Shown piece by piece: positions 685-55,294 of a stretch of 56,715 nt of DNA. Both the position numbers and the translations under genes were made by a program. Below the pieces are notes generated by a model. That model searched no databases. It had not been told where the DNA came from and saw only the letters and a list, made by a program, of their open reading frames with translations. Within the stretch, counting starts at the first letter, position 1. Every line of letters begins with the position of its first letter. This stretch comes from a virus (Duplodnaviria; Heunggongvirae; Uroviricota; Caudoviricetes): IMG/VR virus record IMGVR_UViG_2622736468_000005. The stretch is one strand, 5' to 3'.

Positions 685-831
685 TCAATAAATCCCATCA
701 TTGCGATCAACCTCATCCTTAACCATTGATGCGAGCAGTTCTTCCAGTTTCTGCGCTGACAGCTTTACCTGGTGATCTTCAGCATCTTCCCGGGCTATTG
801 TGGTTCGCGCAGTGGCTGATTTTGCTGACAT
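685..831 (-). CDS. hypothetical small protein (48 aa from internal Met of track ORF 685..966)
   Basis: Only the distal part of the 93-aa track ORF lies outside the tfa-remnant; weak RBS; no recognisable motif. Confidence 0.15.
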   Translation of the reverse strand: MSAKSATARTTIAREDAEDHQVKLSAQKLEELLASMVKDEVDRNDGIY

Positions 832-919
832 CACCACAGGGGGCAGACGGACCATTGAACCATGGCCTCCGGAACAAATAAGGGCAAAAATAACAACCAC
901 TATCGAAAGCTCACAAACT

Positions 920-1135
920 AACCGCAGCACGTTCCTGCATACGACGTGTCTGCGGCATAATCCCAATGATTACTCCCTGACAGGATTTGCAGGCCACTCA
1001 ATATCAGGTGCAGTTGATGTATCAACACGATTCAACAATACCCGATATTTATTCCATGCCTCCAGCAACGATCTTTCTTCCGCCGTTGCGATTTCCAGAT
1101 CTACAGCATCCTGCAGTGGCGCAATATACTCACTG
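920..1135. repeat. direct repeat copy 1 (~216 bp) of the 3' end of tfa plus its terminator hairpin
   Basis: Near-identical by eye to 1971..2187; contains imperfect hairpin ccgcagcacg...cgtgtctgcgg. Confidence 0.8.
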
Positions 1136-1970: not shown

Positions 1971-2187
1971 ACCGCAGCACGTTCTTGCTTAAGACGTGCT
2001 GCGGCATAATCCCAATGATTACTCCCTGACAGGGTTCGTAGGCCACTCAATATCAGGTGCAGTTGATGTATCAACACGGTTCAGCAACACCCGATACTTT
2101 TTCCAGGCTTCCAGCAATGAGGTTTCTTCCTCCGTTGCGATTTCCAGATCTACAGCATCCTGAAGTGGCGCAATATGCTCACTGGCT
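1971..2187. repeat. direct repeat copy 2 (3' end of intact tfa plus terminator hairpin)
   Basis: Matches 920..1135; perfect hairpin ccgcagcacg(ttcttgcttaaga)cgtgctgcgg immediately after tfa stop. Confidence 0.8.
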
Positions 2188-2603
2188 ACCTGCATCAGGC
2201 TGTTTTTTGTTTCTTCCGCCTCCCGGATCCGGAACAGTTTTTCTGCTTCCGTATCCTTCACCCAGGCTGTGCCGTTCCACTTCTGAAACTCCCCTTCCGG
2301 GGATAACCAGGTAACATTTTCCGGTAACGGACCGAGTTCAGAAATAAATAACGCGTCGCCGGAAGCCACGTCATAAACCGTTTTACCCCGATGATCTTCA
2401 ACGAGATGCCACGATGACTCATCACTGTTGAAAACGGCCACAAAGCCAGCCGGAATATCTGGCGGTGCAATATCGGTACTGTTTGCTGGCAGACCTGTAT
2501 GAGGCGGAATATATGCGTCACCTTCACCAATAAACTCATTGGTTCCAGCCAGTAGATTATAAATTTTTATGGTCCGTGATTGTTCACTCATTCTGAATAC
2601 CAT
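2019..2603 (-). CDS. tfa: tail fibre assembly protein (lambda Tfa-like chaperone)
   Basis: 194-aa ORF directly downstream of stf with overlapping start/stop (2603); position and size as in lambda stf-tfa. Confidence 0.8.
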
Positions 2604-6434: not shown

Positions 6435-9400
6435 TCAGCTAATCGTGATGCCTGCAGTGGCTTTCTTCATCACCACAACCAGCAAATCGCTGATACTTGC
6501 TGTGGGATACCAGTTATTTACCAGCCATGCTGACACCGAAAACTCCAGTGTCATGTGACCGTGACCGGCAGGCATATCAATAACACCACTGTAAATCAGC
6601 GTATTATCCAGCGCGGTACGGTTATAAATTTCAGCACCGTTTTTCCGCACTATCAGACGGCATGAGGAGTAAATATCAGTATGCTCTTTCTCATGTTTAG
6701 CGCCGCTGAATGCCACCGCCGGAATAACAATCTGCCGGTCAAACGGCTGATCGTCATAAACCCTGACGGTAATGGTTCCTGATGGCCACCGCTCCGGTGC
6801 ACGGGAGTCCCGGGGGAAAGCTTTGCCCACTGTTTTAACGAGATCGCCTTCAATCTGGTTCGCGGACAATTTTCCCAGAACCCGACAGTTCTCGTTAATC
6901 GTGACGTTGTTGAGCGTCCCGGAGTTCGCATTCACGTTACCGCTGATATCGGCATTTTTCGCCGTCAGCCGCCCGTCCGGTGTCAGGGAAAATGCCGGAG
7001 GATTACCGCCGCTGGTAATGGTGGGAGCCGTCAGATATTTCAGGAACACTTCATTCATAAATATCTGATCGCCCTGACCAACAAACATCGGCTTTGTGTT
7101 GCCATTCGCAGGATTAATCATCGCAATCCTGTCTGCCGCCAGCAGCACCTGACTCTGCATTCCTGCTGGCGTATTCTCAATACCGGCACCGATACCCGCA
7201 ATATAAAGGCGTCCGTCCTGCATCTGCTGCAGTTTCACGGCCCACATGCTGTTCAGGTTATTATTTGTATCAACCTGAACTTTCTGTATCTGCTGGATTG
7301 CCGCACTCTGATTTTCCAGTTTTTTATTGACGGTCTGCGTGATTTCATTGCTGACATTCGTAATGGACGTCCTGATTTCAGCCAGGTCCGGCGCAAGCTG
7401 ACCGTTATCAATCTGCGTCCACAGCTCCTGGGCCAGATGTGTTTTCCCGATTTCTCCTTTGAAAAAATCCAGGTAACCTTCCGCATCATCGCTCGCCCGA
7501 CCGACAGCCTCCACGAATGCCGATTTGCCAACAGTATTCACACTGCGGATATAAAAATAATAATCATGGCCCGGCTTGATATTGATACTGGCAGCTATCC
7601 AGTACAGCGCCGAGCCAAGATAGCGGGCTGCGGTTTCAACCTGCCTGATATCCGCAATCCGCTTTTCTGAGAACCAGAACTCAAACTGTACCGTCGGATC
7701 ATAAACGGCAAGATACGGCGTGGCGGTTATCTGAAAATAGCCCGGCGTCAGCTCAATCCGCGACGGCGCTGCCGGTGCGGCAATCCGGAAGGTGGTGGTG
7801 GCAGGTTCACCCTGCTGGCCATAGCTGTTTATCGCCCGCACCGTCAGGGTGTATTCCCCGAGCGGCAGGCCGCTGAAACGGTGCTCCGTGTCTGCGGTGA
7901 TGGCGGTGGTCACCAGTCTGGCATCCGTTCCCTTACCACTGGTCAGGCGCAGACTGAAGCGCACACCCTTCACCACCCGCGGCGTGTCCCATTTCGCCTG
8001 CGCCAGATACTGGCCGTCAGCTGCGCTCACCTCCACCGTCAGGTGCTGCACTGCCGGTGGGATGACGCTGTTCAGGGAACCTGACTGCGGCTCAAAGCGG
8101 GCACCGTTATCCACGATGGCTTCTTTTTCCGGTACGTGCTGCACCGCCGTGATGGCAAAGGTGCCGTCCGTGTTTTCCCGGACGGAGACACAGCGGAACA
8201 GGCGACGGCGCAGTGACGGCAGGGAGAGTCCCCACACCCCGTATGTCTCCACACCATCAGGCAGGGTACTGACCTGTATCCGGTCCGGCGCGGGGTGTTC
8301 GGTGATGTCCACACTCACCGGCTTACCGCTGCCGTTAATCAGGTTCACCGTGGCGGCACCGGTCTCCGGAAGTGTCACTTCACGGTCCAGCGTCAGGGTG
8401 CGGGTGGCAGCATCAATGGACAGGACACGTCCGCCGGTCAGGGTCCCGGCATAGTCGTTATCACAGATTTCAATGATGTCACCGGGTGTGTGCCGCAGCC
8501 CCTGAGACCCGAGCGTGAAATCCACCGTCTGCGTTTCCAGCAGTTCGGTCTTTATCACCCACAGTCCGGCACGGTGGGCCTGACCGCGGCTGGTACAGCC
8601 GAACGCGTCCATCTTCAGCAGGTTGCGTCCGTAGCGCAGTATGGCTTCCGGGTCTTCCACCAGTTCCGTGGAGGTCTGCCAGCCGTTCTGCGGGTCGGTG
8701 TAATTCACCTCCACCGCCGTGTGCCGGTCCTTCAGGGCACTGAAGCTGTAGCGGAATCCCACGCCGTTATCATCCACCACCACATCGCTGTTGGTGTACG
8801 GCCACACCACATCCGACGGGCGGTCCTGAACGAACGTCAGCGTCTGACCGTTCCATACCGGCATACAGCGCATCGCAGAGCAGAAATCACTGAGAACGTC
8901 CCACGCCTTACGCTGTTGTGCCAGGTACGCATTAAAGGTCATCCGCGGCTCGGTCCCCCCGAAACCATCCGGGACCGTCTGATCGCAGTACTGCCCGATG
9001 GCATACAGCGCCCACTTGTCCACATCCGCCGCCCCCAGACGTTTTCCCATGCCGTAGCGCGGGTGAGTCAGCATGTCCCACAGGCACCAGGCCGGGTTGT
9101 TGCTGTATGCCGGTTTCAGACTGCCGTCCCAGATACCACTGTACGTGCGTTTTTCCGGGTCATAGTTTGACGGCACCTGGATGATGCGACCGCGGATATG
9201 GTAGTTCACCGTCATCTGCTGGCCGCCGAACTGCTCCGCATCCACCTGCAGCCCCACAATGGCCGTGTTCGGGTAGCACTGTTTCACATCGATGATTTCG
9301 GTGTATGACGACCACAGCGTCTTATTCTGCAGCTGGTCCGTGGTGCTGTCCGCCGTCTCCCTGACCATCCGGATGTTAAAGGGCCGGGGAGGCAGATTAT

Positions 9401-9908
9401 CCAGAATCACCGAGGCCAGGAACTGTGAGGTGGTCTTGCCGTTAATGGTGACGTCCTTTTCCGTCACCCAGCGGCCATTACGCTGTAACTGAATCAGAAT
9501 CCGGACAGAGGAAGGATTACGGTCGCCCTTTGACGTGGTCTGCACCAGTGACTGCACCCCGAAGGTAACCCGCAGGCGGTCAATGTTCGCGGACGTAATG
9601 GTGCGCGTCACCGGTTTTGCCTTCGTCACTTCCACGCCCAGTCCGGTTTCAGCTCCGGAGGACTCAAAGCCTTCCGGTGGTGTCTGCTCCTGCTCCCCGG
9701 CGCGCCAGACCGCCGTCACACCGTGTATCACGGGATTGCCGTCCGTGTCCGTCAGTGGGGTTTTGTTCACCAGAATACTCTGCAGTCCCTTCACCGGACC
9801 TTCTATCGGTCCCTCACCAATCGCATCAATCACACTCATCATCTGCGTGGATTTGAGATTATCCTTCGCCTCACGAGGCGTGTGTGCCTTACCGCCACCT
9901 TTTCCCAT
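6435..9908 (-). CDS. J: tail tip host-specificity protein J
   Basis: 1157-aa ORF; long N-terminal and internal stretches collinear with lambda gpJ (e.g. [22 protein letters not shown]..., [25 protein letters not shown]...). Confidence 0.9.
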
Positions 9909-10016
9909 ACAGCCTTCCCCTGAATAAATTAACCGCCACTTGCCATTCCGTACAGAAGTCGGATATCCTTCGCCCGAAAAGCATGAAACACATTTCTGCC
10001 ATGCTAAAGAGAAACC

Positions 10017-10048
10017 CCGGTATCAGCAGATACCGGGGTTTTCTTTCA
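10017..10048 (+). terminator. intrinsic terminator-like hairpin (ccccggtatc-agca-gataccgggg + T-run) in I-J intergenic region
   Basis: Perfect 10-bp stem followed by ttttcttt on plus strand; weaker in minus orientation. Confidence 0.45.
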
Positions 10049-10147
10049 TGCCCACCGATAATCCTGTTGGTTAAAACCGGTAATGGCATAAAAATTCTGA
10101 ATATCTTCACATTTTCACACACTGACTGTGGCGCTTATAATTTCGCT

Positions 10148-10246
10148 GCGTTAGTGTTTTTTTGCCCGAGTAACAAAAACAACTCCTTAACATTGATCTT
10201 CATTTGTCTGTCCCCGCAGCTCCGCGATCACTGCGGGATTTTTTTA
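10148..10246 (+). ncRNA. candidate small RNA antisense to the tail operon (promoter at 10114..10141, terminator at 10212..10245)
   Basis: -35 TTCACA / 16 bp / -10 TATAAT on plus strand, then about 100 nt with no good ORF, ending in hairpin cccgcag...ctgcggg + T7. Confidence 0.3.
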
Positions 10247-10250
10247 TGTT

Positions 10251-10931
10251 TTATCCCTGTCGCCCGATAACCACGACCTTTCCGCCCCCGCCTTCATCAC
10301 GGGTGCTGATGTCCTGGGATATACGGCGGGAGCCAACCAGCATTTCCCCGTAAGGCACCGGCATCGGGTTCCCCTGGGCAATCATGTTATCCAGCGAGGA
10401 AAAGTACGTGTTCTGTCTGCCGTTATCCGTTGCGCGGTAATCCGGTGTTTTTGCCTTCGGGGCCAGCATCTGGGCCACTCCGCCCAGAATCATGCTGGCT
10501 CCAAGTGAAAACAGCATCGTGGTGGCAGAAAAACCACCGGCTGCCAGGGCTGAACCCCATAACGCCATTGATGCCCCGGCAGTGAAGAAAGAGCCCACGA
10601 TGGCTGCCGCCCCCAGCACAATCTGCAGTCCACCCTTTCCGGCCCCGGCCAGTCGCGGCACAATGTGGATGACCGTTCCCTCACCCAGCTGTTCGTGAAG
10701 ACGGGCGTACACCGCCTCCGGTGCCGTGTCATAACCGGCAATACGTATCTGGTACCAGCCTTCGTTCATCTGACGGCGAAAGCCCGGCATCTGCATCGAC
10801 AGGGCGCGAATGGCTTCCGCTGCCGTGTTCACATACAGGCTGAGGCGGCGGCCAAATCGTTGTAAATCCCCGTGAAGGCAGATGCGTGCCAGTGGCGGTG
10901 ACGCCAGACTGAATGCGTTCGTCGTTGCCAT
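10251..10931 (-). CDS. I: tail assembly protein I
   Basis: 226-aa ORF; N-terminus ...LASPPLARICLHGDLQRFGRR... and glycine-rich hydrophobic middle match lambda gpI. Confidence 0.85.
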   Translation of the reverse strand: MATTNAFSLASPPLARICLHGDLQRFGRRLSLYVNTAAEAIRALSMQMPGFRRQMNEGWYQIRIAGYDTAPEAVYARLHEQLGEGTVIHIVPRLAGAGKGGLQIVLGAAAIVGSFFTAGASMALWGSALAAGGFSATTMLFSLGASMILGGVAQMLAPKAKTPDYRATDNGRQNTYFSSLDNMIAQGNPMPVPYGEMLVGSRRISQDISTRDEGGGGKVVVIGRQG

Positions 10932-14154: not shown

Positions 14155-17100
14155 TCAGCATTCCTCCGTCACGTCGCATGGACAGCATCACCGCCTGCAC
14201 CCGCTGGTCAATCAGTTGCACAAGGCTGCCCGCAGCTTCCGGCCCTATCTGGCCATTAGTCCCGTCATTCTGAATGGCGATATGGTAGACCGGGGAATAC
14301 ACCAGACCCGCACTGCCGTTCATACTGCCCACCGCTCGCACACCCAGCGAGCCATCCGCCGCCCGGGTCAGGGGCATAATGGCTTCAGGACCGGCCTCCC
14401 CCATAAGTCCCGCCCCTTTTGCAAAGGCAAAGTACGTGGGCGTATCCACAATACTGTTGCTGTACGCACTCAGGTTTGCCGAGGTAAACACGCCGCCTTT
14501 TGCATTGGCCACCGCCCCGCCCAACCAGTCACCAATGCTGCCGAGAAATCCTCCTGCACCGGACATACTATTTGCCGCCGTCCTGATCCCGTTGACAATC
14601 GCGGCATTCATAAGAACTTTTGATATTTCCTGCAGCACTGATGAGGCCCAGCTGCGCCATTCCACTTTATTCCCGTTCAGCACCTCCGTGATGTTATTCA
14701 CCATCCCTGAGATACCCTCCGTCGCAAGTTGTGCTGCCTGTGAGGCGTAATCGGACGCATTATCCACCCAGTTACTGAACCCCTCCTGCAGCCCTTTCTG
14801 CCAGTCCGCACGCTGCACATCCGATTCGGCATAAAAGGCTGCCTGGTCCTTAAGGCGTTCGCTCAGATACTGCGCGTTCTGTGCCCGTGCCTGTCTGTAA
14901 AAATCCTCACTGATATCCCCGGTCTGATACTGAGACTGAAGGTCCGCATCCTTCTGGCGGAAGCTGTCGCGGATCTGCTGCAACTCCCGCATGCGTTCCC
15001 TGGCTCGTTCTCCCTGCCCGTACCCCAGCAGTTCGGCTTCATTTGATGCACGCGCAGCCACATTATCATTCTTCAGGGTCTCTTCCCGGTACCGTAACTG
15101 CTCCCGGATTTTTTGCTGGTCAATCAGGGCCGCATTGCGCAGCAGTTCCTGCTTCTGTATCTCCGTCAGGGTTTTCAGTTCGCCCTGCGCTGTCTGGTAC
15201 TTCAGCTTCGCCAGTTCTGTATTCTGACCCGCCAGTGCCAGTTGCTCTTTCTGCTGCTTCAGTAGCCGGGAAAAACTGTCTTCCGCTTTTTCCGTCTCTG
15301 ATTTTCCACCCCGGGATTTGGGTTTATTCGCCTCGTTATTGCGCCAGGCTTCCAGGGCATTACTGATATAACGTTGTCTCGCCTCCTGATACGGATCACC
15401 CACAAAACCGAGGTCATCCGCCGCATACCCCAGCCGGGCACGCTCTTTTTCTTCCCCTTTCAGTCTGGACAGGGCCAGCTCACGCTCTGTTTTTGTCAGG
15501 GCACTCTGCTGTTTATCATCCAGAGTGGCCTGTGGCAGCCGTAACGGCACATTCACCAGTCCCTGCCGCTGCTGAAGCAGTTCATTACCCTGCCCCAGCA
15601 GACGGTTGAATTCCGTATGCTGACCGTTCATAACCAGCATGGACTGGTACACCTTATTCTGCTCTGCCGCCTGCTGACGAATTAACGCCACACGACGGTC
15701 TTCCAGCCCGGCAAGCACATCCTGAATGGACTGCGCTTTTTCCTGCATCTGTGCCAGACGGGACTGCTCAACGGCAAGCTGCTCTGTTGCCTGAGCAAGC
15801 CCTTCCGTTACGGTCTTCACCGAGGTCAGATGGTTTATCATGAATCCGTCACCGGTCGTCCAGCCCGGGTTCGCCAGAACATACTGATATCCTGCGATTT
15901 TTTCCTGCAGGGATTTCACCCGACTGGCCTGTTCATCAATCAGCCGGTTCTGCTCTGTCAGCGCCGCCCGTGTTCGTCCTTCATTATCTGAGGCTTCAGG
16001 CAAAGACATTGACGGCGTTTTATGCGCGATTTCATCTATCGTCAGTGCATACTGGCGCGCAGACTCCCTGGCCTGCTCCTGATTCTGGTACAGCGTGTAC
16101 CATGCTGCAGCCCCCAGCATCACCAGTCCGGGTACGCCACCAACCAGCCCCAGCGCACCGCTCATCAGACGTGAGCCCACCGCCGTTGTACTGTTCAGCG
16201 CATTCTGGGCGGCGCTTCTGGCAGCAATATTTCTGTTCAGGCGTTCCTGTGTGGCCGCCAGACGGGCCTCTGCAGCAATCTGCATCTCCGTCCCGCGGGC
16301 TGCCGCCACGGCCTGCTGAGCACGGTACACGGCTGCCCTTGCCCGCGCCGTGGCAATCTGCGTTCCCCTGAACTGTGCTTCCGCCAGTGCAACTTCATTA
16401 CGTGCAGCCGTCACAAGTCCTGCCGTGGCAGACATCGCTCCGGAGGCCATATTGCCAAAGTACCGGGCCACCCCGACGGCAACCAGCGCACCCACAGCTG
16501 TTGCCACATTATCAATCTGTCCGGCAACACCGTTCAGCATGCCGGAGAGCGTTTTTGTCACCCCGCTGGCCTCATTCGCACCGCCCACCCAGGCCATAAA
16601 GGCGTTTTCCACCTTTGTGATCCCGTCAGAGACCGTTTCTGGCATGGCGGCATATTCATCACGCAATGTCCCCAGCTGGCTGATTAACGCGGGCACGACT
16701 TTATCCGCCGTCAGTTGACCATCGTCCGCCATCGCCTTCAGATCTTTACGGGCCACGCCCATGCCTGCAGCCAGTGCACGAATGATCCGGTCACCACTTT
16801 CATTGACCGAATTAAATTCCTCACCGCGCAACACACCCTGTGCCAGCGCCTGGCTGAACTGGGTGATCACCGAACCCGCCTCAGCCGTACTGGCACCGGA
16901 GATTTTCAGCCCCGTGGAAATGGCCTCCGTCACCTTCAGTACATCACCGGCACTGTAACCATATTCACGCATCGAGGCAGCCGAACGGGCAAACAGGGCC
17001 GCATTATCCGAAAAAGCGGTACCTGTCCGCTGACTGATATCCATCAGCACTTTCTGTGATGACGAAAATTCATCGGATGACTGTGATGCCTGTTTCAGAC

Positions 17101-33883: not shown

Positions 33884-33918
33884 GCAGTTTACTCACATCT
33901 GACAAAATCAATATAAAC

Positions 33919-34140
33919 AGCCCCTCCGGAGAGGGGCTGGAGAGTGGCGCTATGTGCCATTGCATGGTGCCGGGTGCCTCCCGGTGAATTCAGTACCAGC
34001 ACCTGAATCCGCGATTATCCCATATACCTACTCGCTGATTACCCCTCCGCACAGGGGGATTCACCATGCGAAATTTTTTAACAAACTTCCCGCCGGCCAG
34101 ACAATAATCGCCAGCCTGAATTATGAGCAACGTGGCATTT
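33919..34140. repeat. repeat element copy A (~220 bp) beginning with perfect 20-bp palindrome agcccctccggagaggggct
   Basis: Shares palindrome and several conserved blocks (gcatggtgcc..cctcccggt.aattcag, gggggattcaccatgcga, ttttaacaaa, cagacaat) with copy B; compensatory changes in stems. Confidence 0.55.
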
Positions 34141-34381
34141 TACGGGAAAACTGTTTTCTGCAGTAAAAAGGCCCGCCGGAGCGAGCCTGGAAGGATAGCG
34201 GTCATGTGATGCCGGTTTCCCGGTAACTCAGCATCGGTATCTGAGTCAACGTTTTCTCTACTGGGTCATTTCCGATACGTTCCGCCTTCCGGCAGACTTT
34301 CATCACGTCAGAAAATATAGCACCCTGAGTAACAGGACAGTACTCAGAATTCAGGAAACTGTGACACATCCTGCACAGAAA

Positions 34382-34600
34382 AGCCCCTCCGGAGAGGGGC
34401 TGAAGTATAGCCTAATTTCTGTCTGTCGCATGGTGCCAGGGGCCTCCCGGTAAATTCAGCCTGTCTACTGAATTTGCATGTTCTCTGGATCATACACTTT
34501 GCCAGATGCCCCGCCGCTGAGGGGGATTCACCATGCGATGTAATTTTTAACAAATTCTCCGGCAGCCAGACAATCATCAAGCTGTGGAATTGTGAGGTAT
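34382..34600. repeat. repeat element copy B (paralog of 33919..34140)
   Basis: Same palindrome and conserved blocks; hairpin aaattcag-cctgtcta-ctgaattt. Confidence 0.55.
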
Positions 34601-34829: not shown

Positions 34830-34906
34830 TGGACCGCCATCGGGGACTTGAACCCCGCGCAGCCAGCTTCGAAGGCTGGCGCTCTATCCCGATGAGCTAA
34901 TGGCGG
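34830..34906 (-). tRNA. tRNA-Arg (anticodon read as TCG)
   Basis: 77-nt cloverleaf on minus strand: acceptor CCGCCAT/ATGGCGG, D-arm GCTCATCGGGATAGAGC, anticodon loop CTTCGAA, T-arm CGGGGTTCAAGTCCCCG, 3' TCCA. Confidence 0.7.
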
Positions 34907-34913
34907 TATGTGA

Positions 34914-34989
34914 TGGTGGCCCTTGCTGGATTTGAACCAGCGACCTGGCGATTATGAGTCGCTCGCTCTCACCACTGAGCTAAAGGGCC
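34914..34989 (-). tRNA. tRNA-Ile2 (anticodon CAT, ileX/ileZ-like) or tRNA-Met
   Basis: 76-nt minus-strand sequence GGCCCTTTAGCTCAGTGGTGAGAGCGAGCGACTCATAATCGCCAGGTCGCTGGTTCAAATCCAGCAAGGGCCACCA; 7-bp acceptor stem, CTCATAA loop. Confidence 0.8.
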
Positions 34990-38132: not shown

Positions 38133-38459
38133 ATGACTAAAAATACTCGTTTTTCCCCCGAAGTCCGTCAACGGGCAGTCCGTATGGTTCTGGAAAGTCA
38201 GAGCGAATATGACTCACAATGGGCGACAATTTGTTCCATTGCTCCAAAGATTGGCTGTACGCCGGAGACTCTGCGTGTCTGGGTTCGCCAGCATGAGCGG
38301 GATACCGGGGGCGGTGATGGAGGGCTCACCACCGCTGAACGTCAGCGTCTGAAAGAGCTGGAGCGTGAAAATCGTGAACTGCGCCGCAGTAACGATATCC
38401 TTCGCCAGGCTTCCGCTTATTTTGCGAAGGCGGAGTTCGACCGCCTCTGGAAAAAATGA
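38133..38459 (+). CDS. IS629 transposase OrfA (HTH)
   Basis: 108-aa [25 protein letters not shown]...; slippery A AAA AAT at its end. Confidence 0.85.
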
Positions 38460-39346
38460 TGCCACTGCTGGATAAGCTGCGTGAGCAGTACGGGGTCGGA
38501 CCGCTATGCAGCGAACTGCATATTGCCCCGTCAACGTATTACCACTGTCAGCAACAGCGACATCATCCGGATAAACGCAGTGCCCGTGCGCAGCGCGATG
38601 ACTGGCTGAAGAAAGAGATACAGCGCGTATACGATGAAAATCACAAGGTATACGGTGTGCGTAAAGTCTGGCGTCAGTTGTTACGGGAAGGTATCAGAGT
38701 GGCCAGATGCACTGTGGCACGTCTCATGGCGGTTATGGGACTTGCCGGTGTTCTCCGGGGTAAAAAGGTCCGTACGACCATCAGCCGGAAAGCCGTTGCC
38801 GCAGGCGACCGCGTAAACCGTCAGTTCGTGGCAGAACGACCTGACCAGCTGTGGGTGGCTGATTTTACTTACGTCAGCACATGGCAGGGCTTCGTCTATG
38901 TGGCGTTCATCATTGATGTGTTTGCCGGATACATCGTGGGGTGGCGGGTCTCATCGTCCATGGAAACGACATTCGTGCTGGATGCACTGGAGCAGGCGTT
39001 ATGGGCCCGTCGACCGTCCGGCACGGTCCATCACAGTGATAAAGGTTCTCAGTATGTATCGCTGGCCTACACACAGCGGCTTAAGGAAGCCGGATTACTG
39101 GCATCAACAGGAAGTACAGGCGACTCGTATGACAACGCGATGGCGGAGAGCATCAATGGTCTTTACAAAGCGGAGGTAATACACCGTAAGAGCTGGAAAA
39201 ACCGTGCAGAAGTGGAACTGGCCACACTCACGTGGGTGGACTGGTATAACAATCGACGATTGCTGGAAAGGCTGGGCCATACTCCTCCGGCAGAAGCAGA
39301 AAAAGCTTATTATGCTTCCATCGGAAACGATGATCTGGCAGCCTGA
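38456..39346 (+). CDS. IS629 transposase OrfB (DDE integrase domain)
   Basis: 296-aa ORF overlapping orfA in -1 frame; DDE-type catalytic core. Confidence 0.85.
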
Positions 39347-42791: not shown

Positions 42792-42947
42792 TTACTCCTC
42801 AGGTTCGTAAGCTGTGAAGACAGCGACCTCCGTCTGGCCGGTTCGGATTCGTACCTCGCAGAGGTCTTTCCTCGTTACCAGTGCCGTCACAATGACGGTT
42901 AAACAGATGACGATCAGGGCGATTAGCATCGCCTTTTGCTGCTTCAT
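42792..42947 (-). CDS. hokD: Hok/Gef-family small membrane toxin (HokD/RelF-like)
   Basis: 51-aa ORF MKQQKAMLIALIVICLTVIVTALVTRKDLCEVRIRTGQTEVAVFTAYEPEE with AAGGAG RBS; track ORF 42792..43004 carries an in-frame N-terminal extension. Confidence 0.8.
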   Translation of the reverse strand: MKQQKAMLIALIVICLTVIVTALVTRKDLCEVRIRTGQTEVAVFTAYEPEE

Positions 42948-43238
42948 AGCCTGCTTCTCCTTGCCTTTCGGCACGTAAGAGGCTAACCTACGTGTGTAGA
43001 GCATAGATATGGCCTCAGATTAATGTTAAGCGTCTTGCCGGACGCGTAATGTTAACTGGGGCTTTTCTCTATCTGCCTTTTGGTGTTCATGCCTGAGACA
43101 GATAGCCTCAAGCACCCGCTGCAATTCTACTTAACTCTCCTTTTCCCGCAAACCGTTTTTATCCCCAGCGGCAAATCGAATACACCACCAGCGCCACCGC
43201 CATCGCAATTCCTACCGTTGTTAATGCTTCAGGCCAGG

Positions 43239-52126: not shown

Positions 52127-52184
52127 TTTCTGGTGACGTTTGGCGGTATCAGTTTTACTCCGTGACTGCTCTGCCGCCCTTTTT
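52127..52184 (+). ncRNA. dicF: DicF small RNA (cell-division-inhibitor sRNA)
   Basis: Sequence tttctggtgacgtttggcggtatcagttttactccgtgactgctctgccgccc + T-run matches DicF as I recall it; immediately upstream of dicB. Confidence 0.6.
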
Positions 52185-52822: not shown

Positions 52823-55294
52823 ATGAGTAAGGTCTTTATTTGCGCTGCTATTCCTGACGAACTGGCAACAAGGGAAGAAGGCGCTGTGGCTGTAGCCACA
52901 GCCATTGAAGCTGGCGACGAACGCCGTGCTCGAGCAAAATTTCACTGGCAATTCCTGGAACATTATCCGGCTGCTCAGGACTGCGCTTATAAATTTATTG
53001 TCTGCGAGGATAAACCTGGCATACCCCGCCCTGCCCTCGATTCATGGGATGCTGAATATATGCAGGAAAACCGCTGGGATGAGGAGTCTGCTTCCTTTGT
53101 CCCGGTTGAGACTGAATCAGATCCGATGAACGTCACTTTTGACAAGCTGGCCCCTGAAGTACAGAACGCTGTCATGGTTAAGTTCGACACATGTGAAAAC
53201 ATCACCGTTGATATGGTTATTAGCGCACAGGAATTGTTGCAGGAAGACATGGCAACATTCGACGGACATATCGTTGAAGCGTTGATGAAAATGCCAGAAG
53301 TTAACGCCATGTATCCGGAGCTTAAGCTGCATGCCATCGGGTGGGTTAAGCATAAATGTAAGCCTGGTGCCAAATGGCCCGAAATTCAGGCAGAGATGCG
53401 CATCTGGAAAAAACGTCGCGAAGGTGAACGCAAGGAAACCGGAAAATACACGTCTGTTATTGATCTCGCCCGCGCCAGAACCAATCAACAGCACAGTGAA
53501 AATTCAACAGGAAAAATCAGCCCGGTCATTGCTGCCATTCATCGCGAATACAAGCAGACATGGAAAACACTGGATGACGAACTGGCCTACGCTCTCTGGC
53601 CTGGTGATGTGGATGCCGGAAACATTGACGGCAGCATCCATCGCTGGGCAAAAAATGAAGTTATCGACAACGACCGCGAAGACTGGAAGCGTATCTCGGC
53701 ATCAATGCGCAAACAGCCTGATGCCCTTCGCTACGACCGCCAAACTATTTTTGGCCTTGTCCGTGAGCGTCCGATCGACATTCACAAAGATCCCATAGCA
53801 CTGAACAAATATATCTGCGAATACCTGACGACAAAGGGCGTGTTTGAGAATGAAGAAACAGACCTGGGCACTGTTGATGTTCTCCAGTCATCAGAAACAC
53901 AAACTGATGCAGTGGAAACTGAGGTATCTGATATCCCAAAAAATGAAACCGCGCCGGAAGCTGAACCATCTGTAGAGCGTGAGGGGCCGTTCTATTTCCT
54001 CTTCGCAGATAAGGACGGAGAAAAATGCGGTCGCGCAAACAAACTTTCTGGTCTGGATAAGGCACTGGCTGCTGGCGCCACTGAAATCACAAAAGAAGAA
54101 TATTTTGCCCGAAAAAATGGCACATACACGGGCTTACCGCAAAATGTAGATACCGCTGAAGATTCAGAACAACCAGAGCCGATAAAAGTTACCGCTGACG
54201 AAGTAAACAAAATTATGCAGGCAGCCAATATCAGCCAGCCTGACGCCGATAAGTTGCTTGCTGCATCACGTGGTGAATTTGTTGAAGGGATTAGTGACCC
54301 GAATGATCCGAAATGGGTTAAGGGGATCCAGACCCGCGATTCTGTGAACCAGAACCAGCATGAATCGGAACGGAACTACCAAAAAGCGGAACAAAACAGC
54401 CCAAATGCGTTACAAAACGAGCCAGAAACGAAACAGCCTGAACCAGTGGCGCAACAGGAAGTGGAAAAAGTCTGCACCGCCTGCGGTCAGACCGGCGGCG
54501 GCAACTGCCCTGATTGTGGCGCGGTGATGGGCGACGCAACATACCAGGAAACATTCGATGAAGAGTATCAGGTTGAAGTTCAGGAAGATGATCCGGAGGA
54601 AATGGAAGGCGCTGAACATCCACACAAGGAGAACACTGGCGGCAATCAGCATCACGATAGCGATAATGAAACTGGCGAGACGGCAGATCGCTCAATTAAG
54701 GTGAACGGTCATCACGAAATCACATCCACCAGCAGGACGTGTGACCATCTAATGATCGACCTTGAAACCATGGGAAAAAATCCTGATGCCCCGATCATCT
54801 CAATAGGTGCAATATTTTTCGATCCGCAAACCGGAGATATGGGACCGGAATTTAGTAAGACTATCGATCTGGAAACTGCTGGCGGAGTCATTGATCGGGA
54901 CACCATTAAATGGTGGCTTAAGCAATCACGCGAAGCGCAATCTGCCATTATGACCGATGAAATCCCGTTAGATGATGCACTGTTACAATTGCGGGAATTT
55001 ATCGACGAAAACTCCGGTGAATTTTTTGTTCAGGTTTGGGGAAATGGAGCCAACTTCGACAACACGATTTTGCGCCGTTCATACGAACGGCAGGGGATCC
55101 CCTGCCCGTGGCGTTACTACAACGATCGCGATGTACGCACAATCGTTGAGCTGGGGAAAGCCATAGACTTCGATGCCAGAACGGCTATTCCATTCGAAGG
55201 TGAGCGCCATAATGCACTTGATGACGCCCGTTACCAGGCAAAATACGTTTCAGCTATCTGGCAAAAACTGATCCCAAATCAGGCTGATTTTTAA
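52823..55294 (+). CDS. large phage exonuclease (YdfE-like N-terminus, zinc ribbon, C-terminal DEDDh 3'-5' exonuclease domain)
   Basis: 823-aa ORF; C-terminal ~180 aa with DEDD exonuclease motifs (MIDLETMG, FDNTIL, HNALDDA); CxxC...CxxC ribbon. Confidence 0.65.
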   Translation: MSKVFICAAIPDELATREEGAVAVATAIEAGDERRARAKFHWQFLEHYPAAQDCAYKFIVCEDKPGIPRPALDSWDAEYMQENRWDEESASFVPVETESDPMNVTFDKLAPEVQNAVMVKFDTCENITVDMVISAQELLQEDMATFDGHIVEALMKMPEVNAMYPELKLHAIGWVKHKCKPGAKWPEIQAEMRIWKKRREGERKETGKYTSVIDLARARTNQQHSENSTGKISPVIAAIHREYKQTWKTLDDELAYALWPGDVDAGNIDGSIHRWAKNEVIDNDREDWKRISASMRKQPDALRYDRQTIFGLVRERPIDIHKDPIALNKYICEYLTTKGVFENEETDLGTVDVLQSSETQTDAVETEVSDIPKNETAPEAEPSVEREGPFYFLFADKDGEKCGRANKLSGLDKALAAGATEITKEEYFARKNGTYTGLPQNVDTAEDSEQPEPIKVTADEVNKIMQAANISQPDADKLLAASRGEFVEGISDPNDPKWVKGIQTRDSVNQNQHESERNYQKAEQNSPNALQNEPETKQPEPVAQQEVEKVCTACGQTGGGNCPDCGAVMGDATYQETFDEEYQVEVQEDDPEEMEGAEHPHKENTGGNQHHDSDNETGETADRSIKVNGHHEITSTSRTCDHLMIDLETMGKNPDAPIISIGAIFFDPQTGDMGPEFSKTIDLETAGGVIDRDTIKWWLKQSREAQSAIMTDEIPLDDALLQLREFIDENSGEFFVQVWGNGANFDNTILRRSYERQGIPCPWRYYNDRDVRTIVELGKAIDFDARTAIPFEGERHNALDDARYQAKYVSAIWQKLIPNQADF

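Follow-up and report, generated by a model that had tools for sequence, protein, structure and literature searches.

The published Hfq-dependent small RNA PasB is very probably encoded between tail genes I and J of a lambdoid phage

Identification of the pasB locus

The plus-strand segment 10163..10245 of the DNA analysed here, together with the promoter at 10114..10141, is very probably the gene for PasB, a prophage-encoded, Hfq-dependent small RNA (sRNA) that acts in trans by base pairing. The DNA, hereafter called the window, is the whole stretch of 56,715 nucleotides in the IMG/VR virus record IMGVR_UViG_2622736468_000005 (Caudoviricetes). The PasB gene in the spacer between tail genes I and J is that of an already published sRNA, not of a new one. 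The features of the spacer and of the adjoining tail genes are as follows.

6435..9908, minus strand: J, tail tip / host specificity gene, 1157 amino acids, left boundary of the spacer (list of open reading frames, Pfam)
9909..10084: left module of the spacer (the leader of J when read on the late strand), a swappable segment outside the PasB unit
10012..10041: perfect 13-bp hairpin with a 4-nt loop, arms 10012-10024 and 10029-10041, in A-/T-rich flanks (10005..10050)
10093..10114, plus strand: invariant upstream box AATTCTGAATATCTTCACATTT, core TCTGAA-WWTC-TTCACA at 10096..10111, immediately upstream of the -35 element
10114..10141, plus strand: sigma-70 promoter of pasB, -35 TTCACA at 10114..10119, 16-nt spacer, -10 TATAAT at 10136..10141
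10148..10162, plus strand: predicted 5' extension of the RNA, GCGUUAGUGUUUUUUU, placed by its distance from the -10 element
10163..10245, plus strand: PasB sRNA as published, 83 nt (alignment to E2348/69, published coordinates and probe)
10172..10201, plus strand: conserved single-stranded body, unpaired in the consensus fold and with conserved motifs
10213..10245, plus strand: intrinsic terminator and putative Hfq-binding 3' end, 7-bp stem, 11-nt loop, A, U7
10251..10931, minus strand: I, tail assembly gene, 226 amino acids, right boundary of the spacer (Pfam, annotation of phage ASU11)
10829..11572, minus strand: K, tail gene (list of open reading frames, confirmed with Pfam)

PasB was described in the EPEC O127:H6 strain E2348/69. 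There it is an RNA of 83 nt from the minus strand of NC_011601.1 (1466343..1466261), encoded in prophage PP6 with E2348C_1436 and E2348C_1437 on its two sides (Pearl Mizrahi et al. 2021, Sci Adv, PMC8550237, table S6). The segment 10163..10245 of the window is identical to this RNA at 82 of 83 positions over its full length, and in the wider alignment 10095..10250 is identical to E2348/69 except at 10189, which is nucleotide 27 of PasB and is A in the window and C in E2348/69. In reverse complement, the published probe for Northern blots (AATCCCGCAGTGATCGCGGAGCT) matches 10218..10240 at every position. In E2348/69 PasB sits between the tail assembly gene and gpJ, antisense to both, and the arrangement in the window is the same, as are the promoter region, the terminator, the location and the orientation, whereas the half of the spacer next to J is formed by different modules in the two. 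The window thus has the sequence match, the complementarity to the probe, the location between I and gpJ on the opposite strand and the 7-bp stem with U7 that characterize PasB; membership in the published survey was assigned by blastn with >75% query coverage. PasB loci were also reported to have IS009 in the flank, and in the window IS009 is found at 2062..2260.

The existence, size, strand, Hfq-dependent stability and chimera behaviour of PasB come from work with E2348/69, and the window provides the identity of the locus, its conservation and its distribution. The size and the Hfq-dependent stability in E2348/69 were confirmed by Northern blot, and RNA-seq of the hfq mutant gave log2 fold changes of -6.8 and -2.4 for PasB (Pearl Mizrahi et al. 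2021). RIL-seq identified 37 partners, 30 of them CDS or 5'UTR, with PasB as the second RNA in 99-100% of its chimeric fragments; 258 PasB fragments were obtained in the activating and 1820 in the non-activating condition (PMC8550237). The longest U tract of PasB is 7, and its level was higher in the non-activating condition (LB) than in DMEM (PMC8550237). Such Hfq dependence and such a RIL-seq profile are hallmarks of a trans-acting, Hfq-dependent base-pairing sRNA. The function of PasB has not been elucidated, according to Zhu, Shabalina and Storz (2026, bioRxiv 10.64898/2026.05.13.724894). An initial annotation, made from the sequence of the window, had proposed a short plus-strand transcript antisense to the late operon, and this is what Northern blot and RIL-seq showed for the near-identical E2348/69 locus; the region is not a REP or repeat element without a transcript. 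Another known sRNA, Esr41, was rejected as the identity of the locus, being located on SpLE1, outside any tail operon.

Organisation of the I-J spacer

The spacer between J and I extends from 9909 to 10250 and is 342 bp long (list of open reading frames and Pfam), the size that the initial annotation had given. J has Pfam matches to Ig_J, FNIII-A_GpJ, Phage-tail_3, Phage_Tail_Tip and Ig_GpJ_C, and in phage ASU11, which is identical to the window, this gene is annotated as J. The product of I matches Pfam Lambda_tail_I (E = 6e-17). The initial annotation had contrasted this spacer with lambda, in which I and J were taken to be contiguous. This was wrong: lambda has a gap of 60 bp (I ends at 15444 and J starts at 15505) with a late-strand hairpin of its own.

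The size stood, yet the spacer is not a single insertion. At least five unrelated left-hand sequences were found to join the PasB unit at one point, approximately 10085-10088, in the comparison of IMG/VR sequences. Because these sequences meet the PasB unit at the same point, the 342 bp are two independently assorting modules, a J-leader module and a PasB module, and the I-J junction behaves as a mosaic joint of interchangeable modules. The left half (searched as 9909..10090) has matches of 99% identity or more in 1442 records, which come from 1446 of the 5426 E. coli genomes, and it occurs together with at least two PasB alleles. Neither E2348/69 nor the Stx phages have it; other sequences take its place there.

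The hairpin at 10012..10041 lies in the left module, between AAAGAGAAA on its left side and TTTTCTTTC on its right. Its RNA folds at -26.0 kcal/mol on the plus strand (z = -6.2, none of 200 shuffles as good) and at -27.1 kcal/mol on the minus strand (z = -5.6). Since the fold is strong on both strands and the left flank is A-rich and the right flank T-rich, the hairpin reads as a bidirectional intrinsic terminator, which is separate from the sRNA unit. The initial annotation had placed a strong plus-strand hairpin terminator at 10017..10048 and had made it part of one promoter-to-terminator unit; the strong hairpin is there, but it is not confined to the plus strand and it belongs to the separate module.

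Terminator-like hairpins on the late strand are found at the same place in VT1-Sakai, E2348/69 and CFSAN061770, each in its own sequence. In lambda (NC_001416, 15445..15504) the I-J gap holds a late-strand hairpin followed by TTTTGTCATTT; the hairpin reads AAACCGCC-TGCG-GGCGGTTT, and then, on the late strand, comes TGTCATTT. Lambdoid phages thus seem in general to have a terminator-like hairpin of the late strand upstream of J, and the hairpin at 10012..10041 is the counterpart of those upstream of J in all the lambdoid phages compared. The constant feature of the J-leader module is the late-strand hairpin, the version in the window being predicted to be a good plus-strand terminator as well. 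In lambdoid late transcription the Q-modified polymerase is expected to read through such a hairpin during lytic growth. In the lysogenic state, it would keep stray transcripts from running on into J.

Promoter, RNA body and terminator

The TTCACA/TATAAT pair at 10114..10141, already picked out in the initial annotation, matches the sigma-70 consensus at 11 of 12 positions with a 16-nt spacer. It is the sole site with at least 11 of 12 matches on either strand of the whole 56.7-kb window, in which 0.42 such sites would be expected from first-order Markov surrogates. The same promoter is present in E2348/69.

The single-stranded body consists of an A-R-N run, AACAAAAACAAC (10172..10183), an anti-Shine-Dalgarno-like CUCCUU (10183..10188) and UUGAUCUUC (10193..10201). 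AAyAAyTCC and TTAATCTTC are conserved across the variants. The A-R-N run is likely to be an Hfq distal-face site, and CUCCUU with UUGAUCUUC the likely pairing or seed region. Zhu et al. (2026) locate the seed of PasB immediately before the terminator, and the consensus fold, which leaves the body single-stranded, agrees with that placement.

The second intrinsic terminator of the initial annotation (10212..10245) was found at 10213..10245. It consists of CCCGCAG (10213-10219), an 11-nt loop, CTGCGGG (10231-10237), an A and T7 (10239-10245), and ends 5 nt before the stop codon of I. Its stem is the sole structure predicted in the consensus fold (RNAalifold), the rest being unpaired. Covariation was sought in the alignment of homologues and none was found; the terminator stem is invariant, so this is evidence neither for nor against the structure. 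The folds of the 83-nt and 98-nt RNAs are no more stable than those of shuffled sequences (z about -0.8 to -0.9), which is usual for this class of sRNA and gives no structural support.

The roughly 100 nt between promoter and terminator had been described as lacking a credible open reading frame, and the small open reading frames of the spacer have neither a Pfam match nor a conserved start. An Rfam search had also been suggested. In searches of Rfam 15 with E-value and gathering thresholds no family reached threshold in the spacer (best sub-threshold E at least 2), and neither PasB nor EcOnc22 was matched. The weak matches to Ref84, STnc310 and Hrs1 were rejected as chance matches to terminators. 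Elsewhere in the window, IS009, STnc100 (twice), two tRNAs, the ALIL pseudoknot (an IS3-type frameshift signal), the sok antitoxin RNA and DicF were matched at the gathering threshold, at 2062..2260 (-), 33909..34097 (-), 34373..34566 (-), 34833..34989 (-), 38414..38530 (+), 42942..43117 (-) and 52128..52179 (+).

Alleles, distribution and conservation

The exact allele of the window was found in 847 of 5426 complete E. coli genomes, and alleles 95-99% identical to it in 78 more. Zhu et al. (2026), who described the distribution of PasB, found that position 27 is the one nucleotide that sets PasB-2 apart from PasB, and that other alleles are commoner than that of E2348/69. Together, the allele counts and this position-27 variant identify the locus as pasB in its most prevalent form: the window carries the most prevalent PasB allele. 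Sequences at least 70% identical to the 160-bp unit (10091..10250) occur in 1813 of the 5426 genomes, in up to 11 places per genome. The unit adjoins the stop codon of I in all nine E. coli homologues fetched, and gpJ is on the other side in eight of them; the ninth, strain 1504D004, has an IS66 insertion in place of gpJ.

Conservation was assessed in an alignment of 14 sequences, 70-100% identical overall, and in a second sample of 51 other unique sequences from 130 IMG/VR instances, of which 50 are homologous and one (v36) is unrelated. The homologues share the upstream box, a -10 element of the form xATxAT, GCGTTA, a U-run, AAyAAyUCC (the A-R-N run and then CUCC), UUAAUCUUC and the terminator stem with its U-tail. 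The -10 element, the terminator and the two single-stranded motifs are kept in homologues down to 70% identity. The comparative check of promoter and terminator proposed in the initial annotation thus bore out the terminator and the -10 element, which is kept in all homologues; of the -35 element TTC alone is conserved.

Two contigs from other organisms, one of 460 bp in an assembly of Parendozoicomonas haliclonae and one of 3408 bp in an assembly of Streptomyces flavalbus, carry the PasB box and terminator. They are most likely contaminating E. coli prophage DNA.

Homologues in EHEC O157:H7 Sakai

EcOnc22 (prophage Sp15), EcOnc23 (Sp14) and EcOnc24 (Sp11) of EHEC O157:H7 Sakai are homologous RNAs of about 85 nt on Northern blot, which are bound by Hfq and destabilised without it (Tree et al. 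2014, Mol Cell, PMC4104026). Their loci, which were discovered independently of PasB, are about 74-77% identical to the window over the 160-bp unit. The reverse complement of the probe that they share aligns to the plus strand of the I-J spacers of Sakai Sp15 and Sp14, at the position homologous to the PasB body; the homologous segments are 10085..10250 of the window, 775..927 of the Sp15 locus (L017) and 706..858 of the Sp14 locus (L018).

The EcOnc coordinates given in PMC4104026 fit the current Sakai record (5,498,578 bp) only after a shift of +128 bp. Once shifted, the EcOnc peaks of both prophages span the probe site and lie at matching positions; the shift was accepted because of this coverage and of the agreement between the prophages. 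The first Sakai record was 5,498,450 bp long.

From these comparisons, EcOnc22, EcOnc23 and EcOnc24 appear to be diverged homologues of PasB. They have in common with it the position in the I-J spacer, the strand, the upstream box, the -10 element, the terminator stem and the AAyAACUCC and UUAAUCUUC motifs, but differ in the -35 region and in the 5' part of the RNA. EcOnc homologues are given for PasA and PasD1 in table S6 of PMC8550237, with none for PasB, and EcOnc is not mentioned in Zhu et al. (2026). The link between PasB and EcOnc22/23/24 is a small addition, because it is absent from both Pearl Mizrahi et al. (2021) and Zhu et al. (2026).

The 5' end of the RNA and the upstream box

The published 5' end of PasB, derived from read coverage (PMC8550237), corresponds to 10163, which is 22 nt past the -10 hexamer. 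This is too far for a primary start, so that the RNA is either processed at its 5' end or has an end that read coverage places imprecisely. The promoter predicts a start at approximately 10147-10149, at the invariant GCGTTA, and an RNA of 98 nt. In Sakai the Hfq CRAC peak of EcOnc22 begins, after the +128 correction, 9 nt before the counterpart of the published 5' end. On the strength of the promoter position and of this upstream extension of the Hfq-bound read cluster, we infer that the primary PasB transcript is longer, starting near 10148 and being trimmed to 10163.

The box upstream of the -35 element is unchanged in the 14 homologues that are 70-100% identical overall, and its core recurs, between variable flanks, in 50 of the 51 further unique sequences from IMG/VR (the exception is the unrelated v36). 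It could be a transcription-factor site, an UP element or a recombination linker. Compared with the CRP core TGTGA-N6-TCACA it reads TCTGA-ATATCT-TCACA, a match at 9 of 10 positions, of which 1.9 would be expected per window by chance. CRP sites are centred at -41.5 in class II promoters and at -61.5, -71.5 and so on in class I promoters. The centre of the box, 10103.5, is at about -44.5 for a start at 10148 and fits neither class. A CRP site is therefore not favoured as the identity of the box, the match being no rarer than chance and the spacing wrong. Spf, which is CRP-repressed, was higher in glucose-containing DMEM, and PasB was lower there (PMC8550237).

The operator of a phage repressor was also considered. 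Near-matches to the palindrome CTGAA-N4-TTCA, with one mismatch allowed, number 30 in the window, against 13.8 expected from shuffles. This reading is not favoured, because the near-matches are scattered along the window and not clustered at one region. A palindromic CTGAATATATGCAG-like sequence was seen at 53052..53065 in the pattern search. An exact scan for the box in one genome per species returned chance hits (e.g. inside pgi of Brenneria), Escherichia albertii and two tiny contamination-like contigs, and pointed to no regulator and revealed no spread outside Escherichia.

Discussion

With the locus identified as pasB, sigma-70 RNA polymerase would transcribe PasB from a promoter of its own, antisense to the late tail operon, as far as the intrinsic terminator that abuts the end of I. 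Hfq would be bound by the U7 tail and probably also by the A-R-N run, and the unstructured middle (CUCCUU and UUGAUCUUC) would pair with the 5'UTR or coding regions of chromosomal and accessory mRNAs. When the body was scanned for duplexes with the 155 translation start regions of the window, the best value, -36 kcal/mol, equalled the mean of the shuffled minima, and no phage target stood out.

Class II type Hfq-dependent sRNAs such as ChiX and MgrR combine an A-R-N run with a U-tail. PasB resembles them in its unstructured body, its (ARN)4 run, its C/U-rich stretch able to pair with Shine-Dalgarno regions and its U7 terminator, although there is no sequence relationship and the Hfq faces assigned to PasB are predicted. 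AgvB/AsxR, PasA/C/D, STnc100, DicF and IpeX are, like PasB, horizontally acquired Hfq-associated sRNAs in fixed slots of lambdoid prophages; they are unrelated to it in sequence and occupy the PR'/lysis 'moron' slot or the early region, unlike PasB, which is in the tail cluster.

An action of PasB mainly in cis was weighed against action in trans, and it could also add to it. Immediately past I, the late mRNA is the perfect complement of PasB, and the two might pair, or transcription of PasB might collide with late transcription, in lytic growth or in the lysogen, tuning the expression of J or the processing of the mRNA. The strict position of the unit would suit such a role: it is convergent with the late operon, its terminator stops 5 nt short of the end of I, and all nine fetched homologues place it next to that stop codon, with gpJ beyond in eight and a like arrangement in the phage records. 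The RIL-seq partners, however, are mostly CDS or 5'UTR of other genes of the core and accessory genome, the ribosome-binding site of J is more than 250 nt from the PasB-complementary stretch in the window, late transcription is Q-antiterminated and very strong, and lambda does without the element. We regard a mainly cis-acting PasB as rather unlikely. A second plus-strand sRNA, of about 70-80 nt, might originate in the left module, starting near a weak site at 9940..9969, ending at the 10012..10041 hairpin and lying antisense to the leader and start of J. There the hairpin is followed by UUUUCUUUC, which makes a good plus-strand terminator, a promoter-like site with 9 of 12 matches lies upstream and a 77-nt stretch folds with z = -6.7. 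Yet the promoter match is weak (-10 TATCCT), the z-score is driven by the hairpin alone and the STnc310 match in Rfam (19.4 bits, threshold 40, E = 2) is no better than chance. Moreover, the equivalent hairpins of other phages have a U-run on the late strand only, so that the conserved role would be on the minus strand, and the left module, >99% identical everywhere, offers no comparative test. A second sRNA is accordingly given a low probability, below that of the cis action.

It is more improbable still that the spacer encodes a small protein on the minus strand, with the promoter and terminator incidental. The candidates are a 22-amino-acid open reading frame, MKINVKELFLLLGQKNTNAAKL, from 10203 and one of 67-77 amino acids at 9889..10122, the latter annotated as hypothetical in phage ASU11. 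Phage records do contain hypothetical CDSs here: gp9c of ASU11, one of 32 amino acids in PhiR12_1 and another in 1720a-02. Several homologues (1720a-02, SCU-387, OkiPb01700 and CFSAN061770) have nevertheless lost the ATG at 10203, and the 77-amino-acid frame crosses the 13-bp hairpin, overlaps the start of J, has no Pfam match and is of odd composition. RefSeq annotates nothing here in the E. coli genomes listed, and conservation tracks the promoter, seed and terminator rather than a reading frame. Small open reading frames on both strands were rejected on the same kinds of evidence: no Pfam match, implausible composition and no conserved start codon.

PasB as a trans-acting sRNA thus remains the preferred reading, and a broader one is offered tentatively, as a possibility on which we would not rely. 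In it, PasB and EcOnc22/23/24 would form one family in a fixed I-J slot, much wider than the published survey suggests, and transcription would be governed through the box, a 16-20-nt operator-like sequence placed against a degenerate -35 element, by a host or phage factor, possibly with a link to catabolites; the RNA would start at approximately 10148 and be trimmed to 83 nt.

Reading of the raw sequence alone recovered an experimentally validated sRNA gene hidden in a phage tail operon; that recovery in itself is no new biology. PasB is abundant in pathogenic E. coli, and its probable homology with EcOnc22/23/24 would unify two literatures. The promoter predicts a primary transcript longer than the published PasB, and the invariant box marks where the signal that controls PasB may be sought.
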